Positions 11,944 through 17,079 of a DNA stretch of 36,839 nucleotides are shown piece after piece. Position 1 is the stretch's first letter, and each line of letters starts with the position of its first letter. The DNA is from a virus (Duplodnaviria; Caudoviricetes). Location: IMG/VR virus record IMGVR_UViG_3300002307_001842, positions 1 to 36,839 of that record. One strand, given 5' to 3'. Under the pieces are notes generated by a model that had not been told where the DNA came from, did not search any database, and saw only the letters and a list, made by a program, of their open reading frames with translations. The translations under genes were made by a program, and so were the position numbers.

Positions 11944-12495
11944 TTAAAACCAAAGCATTAACCCTTGTAACATCAGGATAATGCCAGTAATGGCAAATAC
12001 AAAACTACCGTAAAACAGGTAAGCACTTGCTGATAAAATGCTTGTTGATAACACTACAATTGCTAATTGATATGATGTACTTGCATATGCTATCCAAGGA
12101 CTTTTCTTTTTAGCAACATCACGTTCTGTTTCTAATTTCTTAGCCGCAGCAAACAATTCTTGCTTTCCTTCGTTATTTACCGGGTCACTTTCGTAACTTG
12201 CGGCCTTTCGGGTAAAGTTTTCTTTTAACGCAACGTCTTTCGTTTCCACTGCTGCTAATTCGTACATTGTTTGCTTAACACTTTTTGCTTGATAGAAATT
12301 CCAAATGTCATTAGCTTTAATAGTATTATTCATAATAGTACTATTAATTCCATTGTTAATAAACGTATTTGCTGCTAACAATGCTGCAAAGATATTAATA
12401 ACTAATCCAATTCTACCTTTAATTTTTAAATCTGTGTTTTGAGTTTTTTCTTCAACTTTTCTCATTGCTTTCAATCCAACATCTTCAAGTGCCAT
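11944..12495 (-). CDS. DUF4337-like membrane protein
   Basis: TM - ANDIWNFYQAKSVKQ - coiled coil - QLAIVVLS..IL TM pair. Confidence 0.8.
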   Translation of the reverse strand: MALEDVGLKAMRKVEEKTQNTDLKIKGRIGLVINIFAALLAANTFINNGINSTIMNNTIKANDIWNFYQAKSVKQTMYELAAVETKDVALKENFTRKAASYESDPVNNEGKQELFAAAKKLETERDVAKKKSPWIAYASTSYQLAIVVLSTSILSASAYLFYGSFVFAITGIILMLQGLMLWF

Positions 12496-12679
12496 TAACT
12501 TTTGCTCCTAAATTAAATTGTTCGACCGGATCAATTTTTATAAATTGATGTCTTCCGTCGACATATACTATTTTAAAATATTCGCCTTCATTCCATCCAG
12601 CGGTCTTTAGGTTAAAGTCTCTATCTAACACAAGCCGATCAGGTCGAACATCCCAATTATAATCACTATAATATGTCAT
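12485..12679 (-). CDS. Small hypothetical protein
   Basis: 64 aa ORF overlapping the next gene's start. Confidence 0.65.
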   Translation of the reverse strand: MTYYSDYNWDVRPDRLVLDRDFNLKTAGWNEGEYFKIVYVDGRHQFIKIDPVEQFNLGAKVNGT

Positions 12680-12691
12680 TGATCAATCCCT

Positions 12692-12961
12692 TCAAGCGTC
12701 GTTTTTGCTATCAGCACGAGCAATACGATCTACATCAGGTTTCAACCCTAATGCATTACTTATTACTGTGTTGATTCTGATAAAACCGTGATTCATAGTT
12801 TTTACACAGTTATTTGATGCTGTGATAATGCCAGCCATTCCTTTTACAGAACCGGTGATACTTGCTAAAATGAATTTAAGTGTTAGAAAAACAAAATACC
12901 CTGCTACTAATGCAGCAGCGATTGGGAATCCCACTTCTGATACTAGTTTGAAAAAGTCCAT
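12692..12961 (-). CDS. Small single-TM protein (VGFPI motif; YvrJ/holin-like)
   Basis: Real start MDFFKLVSEVGFPIAAALVAGYFV at 12961 behind GGAG and a TAAATA motif. Confidence 0.75.
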   Translation of the reverse strand: MDFFKLVSEVGFPIAAALVAGYFVFLTLKFILASITGSVKGMAGIITASNNCVKTMNHGFIRINTVISNALGLKPDVDRIARADSKNDA

Positions 12962-13109
12962 CGATTCGCTCCCGGTCTTTGTATAGTATTTACCATATTG
13001 GGTAATCAAAAAATTTGACCAAAAACGAGTTTGACAATATAATAGTACTCGTAAAGGCATAACTAAGGCTATAATTGTGACATTAAGGTTAGCAAACGTA
13101 TGAGATCTT

Positions 13110-13593
13110 AATAAAGAAAAGGCAACAAACAGGCAATTATACAGATTAAGGGTGACGGGCCGTTGTAATACCGTTAGTGAGTCCTTTCTGATGTGCAAAG
13201 GTAACTAAATCTAGTCTCTGTAACTAGGCTTCAATTCACTACCCTAGCCTTCTAGTTAGGATGCCTTTGAAATGATTGTCCATGACAGATAACATTTGAA
13301 TTGTCGTAATAGGTTAAGTATAAGCAATTATATTGTTGATCCAATGCGTTCATAGTAACAATTGACACCGAAGTTACTTTAAAAATCGTAGTAGGTGGGG
13401 TAAGGTACAGAGCCCAGAAACGCGGATCTCATTAATACCTACTGTCAAAGCGAAGCGACTCAGATGAGAACCTTTTAAGACATCCCTTTACAGGGTGTCT
13501 TATGGCTCTACAATCTAGATGAGTATTATATTACTGAGAGAAAGAAAAGAAGATAATGCGATCAGCATTATCTTAGATCACACATGTGATCTT
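13110..13593 (+). ncRNA. Candidate large structured ncRNA (or replication-origin region)
   Basis: No credible ORF; about ten nested or serial stems; lies at the strand switch. Confidence 0.5.
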
Positions 13594-13604
13594 TTAAATA
13601 CTAT

Positions 13605-13703
13605 ATGGATATCTTAGATCTATTAGAAATTTTCACGTACATTATAATGTTTGCTGTAATAGGATTTTTTATATCAGCTTTTTTAGAGTTGTTTATTAAA
13701 TAA
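13605..13703 (+). CDS. 32 aa single-TM peptide (MDILDLLEIFTYIIMFAVIGFFISAFLELFIK)
   Basis: Hydrophobic ORF right after a TAAATA motif. Confidence 0.45.
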   Translation: MDILDLLEIFTYIIMFAVIGFFISAFLELFIK

Positions 13704-13937
13704 AACTCTGCAATCTTTGAGGAATAATTATAGAATGTGTTATTTTGATAACATACATTAACACTATTAATGTTTCTCCTATACAGTTACAGAACGAAGA
13801 AAATATGACTATCATTCAAAGGTTAGCAACAGATTTAAAAGATGCAAAATGTTATCAGGGCACTGCCCCAACCAATTCAATTTGGCTTTTATTAAAATGA
13901 TGCTAGACTATATACTTAACTTAAAAAAGAGGTAAAT

Positions 13938-14165
13938 ATGAATAAGTTAGTAATTGTAGCGTTTGCTGCACTTTTTACAGTTGGATGTGCTTCTAAGGGT
14001 AGTGTAGAAGCGTTATCTTCACGTGTATCTGCTCTTGAAGAATCACACACAAATCTTGAAGCAGATCACGCTACTATCAAGTCTGATCACGAAGCAATTA
14101 AGGCAGAACATGCTGACATTTCTTCAAAGCTCGATCGTGCATTTGTGAAGAAGAACTTAAAGTAA
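13938..14165 (+). CDS. Lpp/OprI-like outer-membrane coiled-coil lipoprotein
   Basis: Lipobox TVGC, heptads, C-terminal KLDRAFVKKNLK ending in Lys; GAGG RBS. Confidence 0.8.
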   Translation: MNKLVIVAFAALFTVGCASKGSVEALSSRVSALEESHTNLEADHATIKSDHEAIKAEHADISSKLDRAFVKKNLK

Positions 14166-14184
14166 TTTTTTGAGGGTAGTGTTT

Positions 14185-14253
14185 ATGGCTAAGAAATCTA
14201 AAACTTATAAAGCAGCAGTTCGTGCTATGAAGACTGCCCGAAAGAAAAAGTAA
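14185..14253 (+). CDS. 22 aa highly basic peptide MAKKSKTYKAAVRAMKTARKKK
   Basis: GAGGG RBS, ATG 14185, TAA 14251-53. Confidence 0.5.
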   Translation: MAKKSKTYKAAVRAMKTARKKK

Positions 14254-14256
14254 ACT

Positions 14257-14352
14257 ATGATTAAATGGTTTAAAAGATTGTTTAACAAGGAATATGTTGG
14301 ATATCAACCTCCTTGGATGAAAGGCTCACTTAAGAAAAAATCTGTGCGATAG
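14257..14352 (+). CDS. 31 aa basic peptide MIKWFKRLFNKEYVGYQPPWMKGSLKKKSVR
   Basis: Starts 3 nt after the previous stop. Confidence 0.4.
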   Translation: MIKWFKRLFNKEYVGYQPPWMKGSLKKKSVR

Positions 14353-14369
14353 TATAGAATTTATAAAGT

Positions 14370-14850
14370 TCTGTATGTGTAGTTCTACCGAAAGGCTGAA
14401 GTCGCAAGGGTGTGTGATACAGACATTAAGAATTGTTGTAATTCCATTAATGAATTAGGATTAGTTAAAGGTAGAATTCGACGAAGTAGTAAGTAGTTTG
14501 GGGTAGACGGGAAGTTCGACTCTTCCCCACCTCCACCATAAAGCATATTAGTGAGAGCCGTTAAACCGGAATTATGCGGATTCTCATAAGTGATTCCGGG
14601 GCTAGTATGTTTTATAATGGGGGTGAATTGGAATCGATACACAAATCAGGGACTATGGAGAATCGGCAATACGAAAGTCGTTAGGGTTGGGATTTCCTGG
14701 CCGAAGAAGTAAAACCTATAGACGCAAACGCATCTAAATTTGAGTATATGACAGTTGACGTTGATTTGTTCGCAAGCAACGATGCAGCTGAAATGGTAGC
14801 TTAAACACCTACAACTCCGGGGCAGTTATGCCTTGTCAAATAAAATAACA
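14370..14850 (+). ncRNA. ssrA: Circularly permuted (two-piece) tmRNA; outer boundaries approximate
   Basis: T-arm plus CACCTCC-A-CCA ends at 14538; GGGGGTGAATTGGAATCGA 5' end at 14619 gives a 7 bp acceptor stem with G3.U70; tag frame 14724-14804 ANASKFEYMTVDVDLFASNDAAEMVA*. Confidence 0.9.
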
Positions 14851-14878
14851 ATAAACCCGCTTCGGCGGGTTTATTTTT
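14851..14878 (+). terminator. Intrinsic terminator
   Basis: ATAAACCCGC-TTCG-GCGGGTTTAT-TTTT. Confidence 0.9.
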
Positions 14879-14948
14879 ACCAAACTTTCGTGGCTTCTAA
14901 AATAAATGACTATATAATAAAACTTCTTTTAACATAAGAGCCTACACC

Positions 14949-15971
14949 ATGTATACAAAAAAAGAAATTATTGATATTTTTTCCCACGAAGTAGCCGAAG
15001 ACGATCATGAGATTATTGAGTCAACATTGTTAGCAATTCGTCAACGACAAGTTATCGCTCAGTTTGACATAAATTTAAAGCCATTATTTCCCGAACAAGC
15101 AGATCGAGAAGTGATTGCAAGTATATTAATGCATACTACCGGTGACTTTGATGCTATGATGTCGTTTGCGCAAAATGTAGGAAAACATGATTTTGTAGAT
15201 TATGATAAGTTCTTAACTAATGATAAAGTGCAAGACATAACTGAATGGTTTACTGGCGGCGAATACGAATTAGCAGCATTTAAGAAATTAGCAAACTTTA
15301 AAACTTCAAATAAAGGACCCGGAGAAATTGCATTGTCAATTATGGCTCCTAAATTTTATAGTGTAGGCGACAAAACAGCCCCTGGAGATTTCATTTACAC
15401 AAATGTTCAAAATGAAAAAATTTCAATAGAATTGAAGTCTGCAAATTCTCCACGTTCACACGGTGGACGACTTCACGATGAGACTCGTTCTAACCATGAC
15501 TGGACCGAATGTTTCAATGTATTGAAATATATTCCGACAGTGAACGGTAAATATACTTTAAATCAATACCTAACTTTGCATCGTAAAACCTTGACAGACA
15601 TTAAAAAACGATCAATTGCTAACGTAGTAGTTGATGCTAATTTTAAGTTTGCGATTGATACAACACGATTAAAAGATCTTTTAGTACGCGGTTCTGAAGA
15701 AGAAATTAAAAAGGAATGGGGTGTTCAAAGTTTCTATAATTATAAAAATTATTCAAAGTTTGAAAAACTAATCTTTATAGATTTTTATGGTGGCAGATCG
15801 TTAGTCACTGAAGATATTAAAAATGTACAAGATCAACTAAAATATGGAACTGTGATTTTTTGCGGAGATCTGAGAAAACATTCGAGAGAAATTATGCCGC
15901 AAATAACCATAATGGGCCCGCATTCTCGGTTGAAAACATCCAAAAAAGAGGATGGGTACACCAGCATTTAA
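14949..15971 (+). CDS. Hypothetical protein, PD-(D/E)XK nuclease-like
   Basis: GPGEIALS...PGDF.....SIELKS spacing resembles a restriction-endonuclease-fold active site. Confidence 0.55.
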   Translation: MYTKKEIIDIFSHEVAEDDHEIIESTLLAIRQRQVIAQFDINLKPLFPEQADREVIASILMHTTGDFDAMMSFAQNVGKHDFVDYDKFLTNDKVQDITEWFTGGEYELAAFKKLANFKTSNKGPGEIALSIMAPKFYSVGDKTAPGDFIYTNVQNEKISIELKSANSPRSHGGRLHDETRSNHDWTECFNVLKYIPTVNGKYTLNQYLTLHRKTLTDIKKRSIANVVVDANFKFAIDTTRLKDLLVRGSEEEIKKEWGVQSFYNYKNYSKFEKLIFIDFYGGRSLVTEDIKNVQDQLKYGTVIFCGDLRKHSREIMPQITIMGPHSRLKTSKKEDGYTSI

Positions 15972-16098: not shown

Positions 16099-17079
16099 AT
16101 GATAGACGATTTACATTATAGACTGAAGACAGCATTACACAACAGCCTCTACTCGTACCCCGATTATAAGGATAGTGTACTGCATCGAATTATTGATGAT
16201 TTAGAAAACTACACAGCTTTTTCGGAAGTTTATTATAACTATATTCCCGTAGAAAAAGTAATAGAACACGATTTCGGAAGTGGGTTAATAGGTACAAATT
16301 TAGACACTTCGGATATTGATTTACTTTCTCTTAATACATACAAGAAGACATTAAAATATATAAATGCTCAAACATCTTATAGTGATATCATATGGACTTA
16401 CGAGAAAAGAGATGGTAGAACATTTGATTACGGCGCAATGAGTTTTACTTTAGTATATCGCCAACTTAATAAAGAATTTTTGTCTCTAGGCGATGCAACT
16501 AGAAGTGTTTCTCACCTAGGTGCTATTAAATTTAACTTACTTACCGTGTATAATGAAGATATTTTTAAAGAATATCACAATTATCTATTGGCTCCAGGAA
16601 GATCAATACAATTTTGGATTAGATTGATGAATATTGCTTATCAATCGTTATTGGTATTGCCAGATAAAGAATTTAATTGGTATTTAAATCCTGCACAAAA
16701 TGAATTATACTCTAAAACATTAGAAATTTGGTCATGGTTAGGTCTACCATACCCTGAGTTATGTAAACAAGGATACGATCCTCTACTATCAAAGTATGTG
16801 TTTCAGTATATTACAATTGCTAAGAATATTTTAGAAAACAACGATTATCTATTTTCTGAAACAGAAAAACAATATATAATCGCTTTAAAAAATGAAGAAT
16901 TAAGTTACAAAGATTATTTAGAAATTAAAAAAAATATTTGGAAACCGTTCAGAAAGGCCGTAGAATCTATTTCACATAGGTATTTTTTGGGTTACGGTAA
17001 TACTATTGAAAAATCTACAAAGTACTTAGGAACCGACGGTGACATGTACATATTAAATTTATTCAATTCAGGAAAATAA
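16099..17079 (+). CDS. Hypothetical protein (Tyr-rich)
   Basis: 326 aa ORF preceded by TATAAATA. Confidence 0.7.
   Translation: MIDDLHYRLKTALHNSLYSYPDYKDSVLHRIIDDLENYTAFSEVYYNYIPVEKVIEHDFGSGLIGTNLDTSDIDLLSLNTYKKTLKYINAQTSYSDIIWTYEKRDGRTFDYGAMSFTLVYRQLNKEFLSLGDATRSVSHLGAIKFNLLTVYNEDIFKEYHNYLLAPGRSIQFWIRLMNIAYQSLLVLPDKEFNWYLNPAQNELYSKTLEIWSWLGLPYPELCKQGYDPLLSKYVFQYITIAKNILENNDYLFSETEKQYIIALKNEELSYKDYLEIKKNIWKPFRKAVESISHRYFLGYGNTIEKSTKYLGTDGDMYILNLFNSGK

Follow-up and report, generated by a model that had tools for sequence, protein, structure and literature searches.

The Polynucleobacter-1 motif (Rfam RF01718) was described by Weinberg et al. in 2010 (PMC2864571), where its table row and supplementary text assign no function; it covers only the 5′ third of the element considered here. 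ColE1 RNA II is a promoter-driven, structured noncoding RNA of several hundred nucleotides, for which the relevant section of PMC5043065 proposes a persistent hybrid at its own origin and a displaced strand that serves helicase loading. The R-loops at the T4 origins oriF and oriG are presented, in the part of PMC3016281 concerned with them, as sequence independent and without a shared motif, so that an ornate RNA is not required at oriF. ARRPOF, GEBRO, and PAGEV are structured motifs of 220 to 350 nt that PMC5737381, in its account of these three, ties to plasmid replication, with ARRPOF sitting in a region that replicates without Rep. DRT10, according to the available text of 10.1101/2025.10.16.682844, needs a linked reverse transcriptase (RT) and a SLATT gene, and works with a 9-nt repeat unit and anchors of 2 to 4 nt.

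The window, a virus record of which 36,839 nt were analyzed (L167), carries T4-like and host takeover genes (those for PAAR, an exonuclease, S21, Hsp20, Hsp70, RimK, and FtsH) together with seven tRNAs and one permuted tmRNA. DNA samples with near-matching sequence were freshwater or unspecified metagenomes. The element lies between a three-gene block on the minus strand (11944 to 12961) and genes on the plus strand. An initial annotation had placed it at a strand switch and had called the region ORF free. The switch consists of just this three-gene block, and a genome-scale switch is absent; the region is ORF free except for a TTG-extended reading on the minus strand (12692 to 13198), whose PHROG-matched part is an 89-amino-acid (aa) ORF at 12692 to 12961. 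Lengths of the relatives were evenly spread modulo 3 (17/18/23).

The permuted (two-piece) tmRNA at 14475 to 14804 (plus strand) scored 61.5 bits. Its likely tag frame is unusually long (26 aa, ANASKFEYMTVDVDLFASNDAAEMVA), with the resume codon taken from the Rfam alignment. Directly before it, 221 nt (14245 to 14467) are missing from a contig of run X2, which indicates a strain without this piece. An ORF of 75 aa for a small lipoprotein-like product with signal peptide and cysteine (13938 to 14165, plus strand) is shared with L076 and had no Pfam or PHROG match; presumably, it is Lpp-like. A match to Rep3_C at residues 2 to 48 of a 326-aa protein (16099 to 17079, plus strand) was borderline (E = 1e-4), with no stretch passing alone, and is probably spurious.

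The first relative was found via the neighboring protein and was 90% identical at 13229 to 13525 versus 74% in the downstream flank. When the 89-aa protein served as bait, the RNA element was present in 1 of 80 loci. Pattern scans returned 27, 31, and 70 viral stretches and 60 metagenome stretches; among 185,579 prokaryotic genomes, the pattern occurred in 2, both on short contigs of metagenome-assembled genomes. Dropped from the collection were 15 of the 70 viral-scan loci (HMM hits absent or trivial), 14 loci that were partial, and 17 of 177 hits that were not full. The 58 representatives (<95% identity) had a mean identity of 67% and lengths of 362 to 499 nt, and 54 of them made up alignment A2, from which four relatives with long inserts were excluded. 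Many relatives sit on contigs of 140 to 354 kb with mostly unalignable flanks, and neighbor genes vary, the commonest cluster occurring at 12 of 58 loci. tmRNA or tRNA genes were often nearby (6 of 20 loci scanned, two of the six being duplicates). A blastn search against phages gave one chance match of 30 nt. The element is a ∼390-nt conserved feature of T4-like freshwater jumbo phages, and its parts and surroundings are as follows.

13015 to 13043, plus strand: sigma70-type promoter-like site, TTGACC-17-TATAAT (11/12 match)
13055 to 13134, plus strand: four copies of AGGC, paired at a spacing of 11 nt (13055 and 13066; 13120 and 13131), which include AAAGGCA
13148 to 13525, plus strand: conserved structured core of ∼390 nt, type A subfamily (58 representatives, <95% identity)
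13150 to 13306, plus strand: 5′ domain of hairpins and a long helix, weakly like Rfam Polynucleobacter-1
13154 to 13175, 13176 to 13206, 13211 to 13227, and 13243 to 13260, plus strand: hairpins of the 5′ domain (from helix counts)
13232 to 13238 with 13297 to 13303, plus strand: long helix of the 5′ domain (from helix counts)
13340 to 13426, plus strand: central domain, closed by 13340 to 13350 with 13419 to 13426
13354 to 13378, plus strand: hairpin in the central domain, arms 13354 to 13359 and 13373 to 13378
13363 to 13369, plus strand: loop TGRCACC, complementary to the TGYC boxes at 13443 to 13447 and 13494 to 13500
13391 to 13442, plus strand: pseudoknot-type helix GTAGG/CCTAC (from pairing counts)
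13396 to 13416, plus strand: near-invariant hairpin with loop AAGGTACAGA, its invariant columns being partly selected by the search motif
13443 to 13467, plus strand: unit 1, TGTC ... ACTC plus hexamer AGATGA (13462 to 13467)
13476 to 13502, plus strand: hairpin with a near-invariant right arm GGGTGYC and a left arm that drifts to G.U pairs
13494 to 13522, plus strand: unit 2, GGTGTC ... ATCT plus hexamer AGATGA (13517 to 13522), proposed DNA target of the RNA
13550 to 13592, plus strand: tandem hairpins after a purine tract (from mini-hairpin and loop counts)

Conservation and covariation of the core are far beyond chance. RNAalifold predicted 58 pairs from the 54 sequences, 41 of them with changes on both sides. 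A 69-pair model was 92.6% paired and had 46 compensatory pairs versus 15 to 21 when slid, a lenient control because the model was derived from the same sequences. Covariation E values came from a home-made null with 12 replicates and not from R-scape, and several covarying pairs of the P3 region are alignment artifacts. Folding energy was near chance, with z scores of −1.91 (plus strand) and −1.04 (minus strand) for 13100 to 13600 and −0.22 for the core; 9 of 12 representatives were weaker than −1.5.

All motifs named in the initial annotation were found where it had placed them. Across the 54 relatives, its helix CTAGT/ACTAG was 84.6% paired with compensatory changes at all five pairs, CCTAGC/GTTAGG was 95% paired, TAAGACATCC/GGGTGTCTTA was 93% paired, and GTAGG/CCTAC was 98% paired, four of its five pairs being compensatory. 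TGGG/CCCA was also well paired (94%) but had zero compensatory changes, three of its four pairs being invariant, and CCTTT/AAAGG lies in a poorly aligned region and was 59% paired. The large structured noncoding RNA proposed on these grounds finds support in covariation, G.U bias, GNRA core loops, and an upstream promoter match. Of the long-range helices drawn for it, two do not hold up and one more lacks support. TAGTGAGT/ATTCACTA was 64.8% paired and is displaced by CAATTCA/TGAATTG (98.9% paired, 7/7 pairs compensatory), ACTCA/TGAGT was 37% paired, both strings being flanks of the twin repeats described below, and the AAAGGCA (13118) of AAAGGCA/TGCCTTT precedes the conserved 5′ edge, outside the helix count. 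The two helices that close the central domain and its hairpin (13340 to 13350/13419 to 13426 and 13354 to 13359/13373 to 13378) were 93 to 100% paired with all pairs compensatory. The closing helix AAGG/CCTT was 92% paired and, because compensatory changes are absent, is regarded as putative. A helix at 13277 to 13287 was 40% paired owing to a register problem, and RNAalifold places a shifted helix there.

No match to RNase P or to group I or II introns was found in Rfam at E ≤ 10 in 12700 to 15200 or at E ≤ 2 in nine relatives, in line with the initial annotation, and the same searches gave no match to GOLLD, ROOL, OLE, or raiA. A likeness of 13268 to 13288 to the 3′ end of RNase P was discarded, as the pattern was not conserved (present in two stretches) and Rfam RNase P did not match.

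A G.U bias was seen on the plus strand (63 G.U versus 18 A.C), and loops of the core are of RNA type, with 1.61 GNRA loops per kb versus 0.43 after shuffling. Covariation, G.U bias, GNRA loops, and upstream promoter motifs together make it likely that a plus-strand RNA is made from the element. The promoter-like site at 13015 to 13043 is its likely driver, judging from the match. In the 100 nt upstream, 32 of 57 relatives had a −10 hexamer, compared with 9 of 52 control windows. A phage-type promoter motif, TTTGG-N7-9-RTATAMT, was seen upstream of 20 of the 57 relatives and in none of the controls; the window itself is without the TTTGG motif. This motif precedes, among others, L082, L083, L091, L093, and L099, and CCAAAA inverted partners often lie ahead of it. 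On the opposite strand, from which an antisense control RNA like RNA I of ColE1 would come, no promoter match was found inside the element of the window, and a −10 hexamer occurred on the minus strand of 9 of 58 cores, which is background level. At least three AGGC repeats, mostly spaced by 8 to 11 nt, were present in 16 of 57 relatives versus 0 of 51 controls; they possibly form an optional leader, as phased protein sites or as a competitor for UGCCU.

The main feature of the element, overlooked in the initial annotation, is a twin repeat. The two AGATGA hexamers of the window start at 13462 and 13517, 55 nt apart. Among relatives, this spacing was 50 to 65 nt and not fixed modulo 3, so that there is no DRT2-like endless ORF. 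In 56 of 58 relatives, the hexamers following ACTC and ATCT had the same sequence, and seven such matched states occurred. Parsimony requires 14 and 15 changes for the two hexamers taken singly and 15 for both together (17, 18, and 18, respectively, on a tree of the 5′ 300 columns). The second-strongest covariation of the alignment, between columns 334 and 388 (13465 and 13520; 96 versus null maxima of 46 to 67), is sequence identity and not a base pair. None of the alignment columns was a strict pairing partner of the variable hexamer positions (best values of 0.66 to 0.88, mostly near-invariant columns), and just 2 of 58 relatives had an exact hexamer complement within the element. Pairing of column 317 with hexamer column 334 reaches 0.95 if G.U is allowed, so that local hairpins may explain part of the twin pattern. 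A conserved extra C directly precedes hexamer 1, and at flank offset −6, a mismatch in the direction disfavored in a hybrid was present in 5 of 58 relatives.

Each hexamer is preceded by a TGYC box, the Y being the same in both boxes in all 58 relatives. The TGRCACC loop of the central domain can form 7 bp with box 2 (99.2% paired) and 5 bp with box 1 (89.6% paired). The distance from box 2 to its hexamer was 21 nt in 45 and 22 nt in 9 of 58 relatives, and that from box 1 to its hexamer was 13 to 25 nt. Box 2 doubles as the right arm of the hairpin at 13476 to 13502, so not all pairings fit one RNA fold, and pairing of the loop with the boxes excludes this hairpin. This exclusion, the good match of the loop to both boxes, an invariant loop and linker that resemble an active site, and the extra C ahead of hexamer 1 are what would be seen in a ribozyme or switch made of RNA only. 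Its TGRCACC loop would dock on unit 1 and then on unit 2, and it would cut, splice out, or circularize the 50- to 65-nt piece between the hexamers. We consider this possible but rather improbable, since it leaves unexplained both the identity of the hexamers, for which it offers no complementary strand, and the strand-specific hairpins of DNA type downstream.

The template strand complements both hexamer copies, which would require their identity without a partner inside the RNA. Of the strands that could complement both hexamers, the template DNA of copy 2 is the simplest, and this favors a primer RNA with a clamped R-loop. The lockstep of the twin repeats thus suggests that the RNA grips its own DNA, perhaps starting DNA copying. 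Our main reading, to which we give a probability of roughly one-half, is that the element encodes a primer RNA of the ColE1 kind. By pairing with its own DNA, this RNA would open a replication origin and probably also prime it. RNA made from the promoter at 13015 to 13043 would fold during its synthesis, and its hexamer 1 (13462 to 13467) would then hybridize to the template strand of the DNA at hexamer 2 (13517 to 13522). Masukata and Tomizawa reportedly found in 1990 that a repeat of RNA II pairs with the template at its downstream copy. The TGRCACC loop would grip the displaced plus strand at GGTGYC, 21 nt or two helical turns upstream, so that the R-loop would be clamped on both strands. 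The displaced plus strand may then fold into G.A mini-hairpins (13550 to 13592), a likely loading signal for a helicase or primase, and the end of the RNA, perhaps after trimming, would prime DNA synthesis like ColE1 RNA II and the T4 oriF transcript. Against this primer model stands the fact that unit 2 also forms a G.U-rich hairpin, as expected of RNA. Further points against it are the flank mismatches and the pairing of column 317 noted above and, as given below, the loci without a strict mini-hairpin, the GC skew, and the absence of a match to plasmids or RNase H.

The downstream patch is the part of the locus with DNA-like features. Mini-hairpins of the form C-G(N1-3)A-G within 120 nt of the core occurred at 7.1 per kb on the plus strand versus 0.9 on the minus strand and 1.4 after shuffling, relatedness being ignored in these counts. 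A strict mini-hairpin within 120 nt was present in 30 of 55 loci and missing in ∼25. Loops here were of DNA type on the plus strand only (per kb, GNA, 2.84 versus 0.84 after shuffling; GNYA, 1.35 versus 0.46; GNRA, 0.27; relatedness ignored). GNA- and GNYA-type loops are stable when formed by DNA, not by RNA, and are similar to signals of primosomes or of single-strand initiation. We infer that the hairpins at 13550 to 13592 may act as a single-stranded DNA signal on the displaced strand. The two terminal hairpins of the initial annotation lack sequence conservation but are part of this conserved patch with its DNA-type loops. The AGATCACA/TGTGATCT palindrome has a loop of two bases (13583 and 13584), which is CA in the window and its reverse complement TG in 3 of 3 DNA runs, an inversion of the loop as expected of a DNA hairpin. 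In the clade of L212, L224, L225, L247, L253, and L261, the mini-hairpin patch is missing and direct repeats, CCGCAAAA/CCGTAAAA, are found downstream, possibly protein-binding iterons that substitute for it.

DNA-type loops of this kind, and the fact that comparative methods also pick up single-stranded DNA motifs, as noted in the part of PMC5737381 that deals with such methods, would suit a purely DNA-level element (a single-stranded origin or recombination site) without a functional RNA. This is the reading we hold least likely, given the GNRA loops and G.U bias of the core, its pseudoknotted long-range helices, and the predicted upstream promoters.

The Rfam search proposed in the initial annotation assigned no family, but it brought to light, as a link the annotation had missed, a subthreshold match to Polynucleobacter-1 in the 5′ part (24.2 bits, E = 0.014, 13150 to 13306; gathering score of 37 not reached). 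RF01718 was not found at the gathering score in 20 loci of the family or at E ≤ 2 in 9 loci. The weak match spans the whole 141-position model, and the CACTAYC...GGAYG block is present in both. The tail that follows in RF01718 loci carries ACTC|X7...ATCT|X7 twins as well as G.A hairpins in tandem. The window has an RF01718-like layout of 5′ hairpins, CACTAYC/GGAYG block, twin tail, and downstream hairpins. The five phage-type RF01718 loci that were aligned have an AGGTAC hairpin core in common. The central domain of RF01718 differs from that of the window element. Hits between HMMs of the two were weak and colinear (best E = 6e-5; 5 of 58 at E < 0.01; none in reversed controls). Above the cutoff, RF01718 was found in 13 of 121 genomes of the genus of G006, at loci that extend ∼300 nt further.

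An independent set is given by the RF01718 loci above the cutoff whose 3′ side is complete, all 15 of which terminate in ACTC/ATCT twins; this count excludes L275 and L290, which are incomplete, and L287, which is below the cutoff. Over 7 nt, 11 of these twins were identical, 2 differed by G versus A in the direction tolerated by rG.dT wobble, 1 matched at 6/7 positions, and 1 matched at 5/7. The window element is an uncatalogued subfamily of this orphan RNA motif. No description of the element was seen in the literature, judged by titles and the starts of abstracts, and the core motif was absent from six supplementary files of PMC10690425, of which three other files could hold it.

Bacterial RF01718 loci lie on integrase islands beside DUF6641 and a small tyrosine recombinase, often with an AAA gene. 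The recombinase, of 188 to 190 aa, adjoins the sister element in 5 of 5 loci. On islands L327 to L333, RF01718 lies between DUF6641 and this recombinase, and a tRNA is within 20 kb on five of the seven. Two RF01718 copies each are present in G117, G026, G006, and G046. A separate RF01718 element was found in 4 of 14 carrier phage records and not in the other 10, most of which are incomplete; a control was without any match. In the two carriers examined, it follows directly after a GIY-YIG/SegE-like gene near baseplate hub and SbcCD-like genes, and in both G004 (L335, 1200 to 1650) and G005 (L336), it starts at the stop codon of the SegE-type GIY-YIG gene. This gene and the RF01718 element may form a homing unit.

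In all four phages with both elements, the twins match within each element and differ between elements, so the window element is a paralogous subfamily and the twin constraint is local, and such element-specific twins argue against a shared host or phage partner. A further reading is a scaffold, sponge, or antidefense RNA of the GOLLD or ROOL kind, whose twins would be two sites for one protein or RNA. A large and ornate phage-borne RNA with its own predicted promoter, often near tmRNA or tRNA genes, is what one would look for in such a case, and we nevertheless hold it unlikely, with twins that change together ∼14 times and differ between two elements of one phage, and with the absence of a match to GOLLD, ROOL, OLE, or raiA.

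Slightly less unlikely is an RT template RNA with A-B-A′ realignment, as in DRT10, DRT2, and telomerase, or a decoy thereof, which would give tandem cDNA of 50 to 65 nt. Identity of A and A′ without a third partner is the signature of DRT10 in the available portion of 10.1101/2025.10.16.682844. A search of five carriers, including two that are near complete, found no RVT_1 (PF00078), and no RT was found among 45 island proteins; a recurring neighbor gene is likewise absent, and the B segment holds a stable hairpin.

The initial annotation had offered a replication origin as an alternative to an RNA; in our primer reading, the origin becomes the likely job of the RNA and is probably not a rival to it. 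GC skew gave this no support, as its turning point was not at the element in 2 of 2 near-complete carriers (G004 and G005), a weak test because skew follows gene direction and transcription in these phages. A family B polymerase was present in 5 of 5 carriers, and RNase H (PF00075) was not found in any of the five searched. The T4-type RNase H belongs to a family other than PF00075. No Rep family was found among the 45 island proteins scanned (82 called).

More broadly, and only tentatively, the jumbo phages and integrative islands may share a family of self-targeting primer RNAs that recognize their own DNA on both strands at once, with a reprogrammable hexamer contacting the template and, two helical turns away, a loop contacting the displaced strand. 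Such an RNA would be an RNA-only initiator, and its twins a private address that prevents cross-priming of paralogous origins. In any case, the motif of 2010 is extended to a family of ∼400 nt with at least two subfamilies. If the origin model is true, T4-like jumbo phages would use an ornate, sequence-programmed primer RNA, unlike T4, and apparently Rep-less islands would gain a replicon with a reprogrammable hexamer. If it is false, the design with its two registers suggests that the RNA is a new ribozyme or RT template.

Compared with DRT10 as described in the accessible text of 10.1101/2025.10.16.682844, the element shares an A-B-A′ identity (56/58) that varies between systems; unlike DRT10, it has no RT found nearby, and its RNA would be ∼3 times as long as the 137-nt DRT10 RNA. 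With ARRPOF, GEBRO, and PAGEV, it has in common a structured motif and a proposed link to replication, and it differs in hosts and by the lack of an Rfam match to them; twin repeats are not described for these motifs in the portion of PMC5737381 that covers them. Like T4 oriF and oriG, as they appear in the pertinent part of PMC3016281, it belongs to a T4-like phage, has a promoter followed by an A-rich tract, and can occur with more than one related element per genome, whereas its predicted RNA, in contrast to theirs, is highly structured and conserved. No similarity to plasmids was found by blastn against 72,556 plasmids (E ≤ 10). In its way of working, the proposed primer RNA would have its analogue in ColE1 RNA II, to the extent that this RNA is treated in PMC5043065. 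Unlike ColE1, the element resides in jumbo phages and combines variable twin hexamers with a loop that could grip the other strand.
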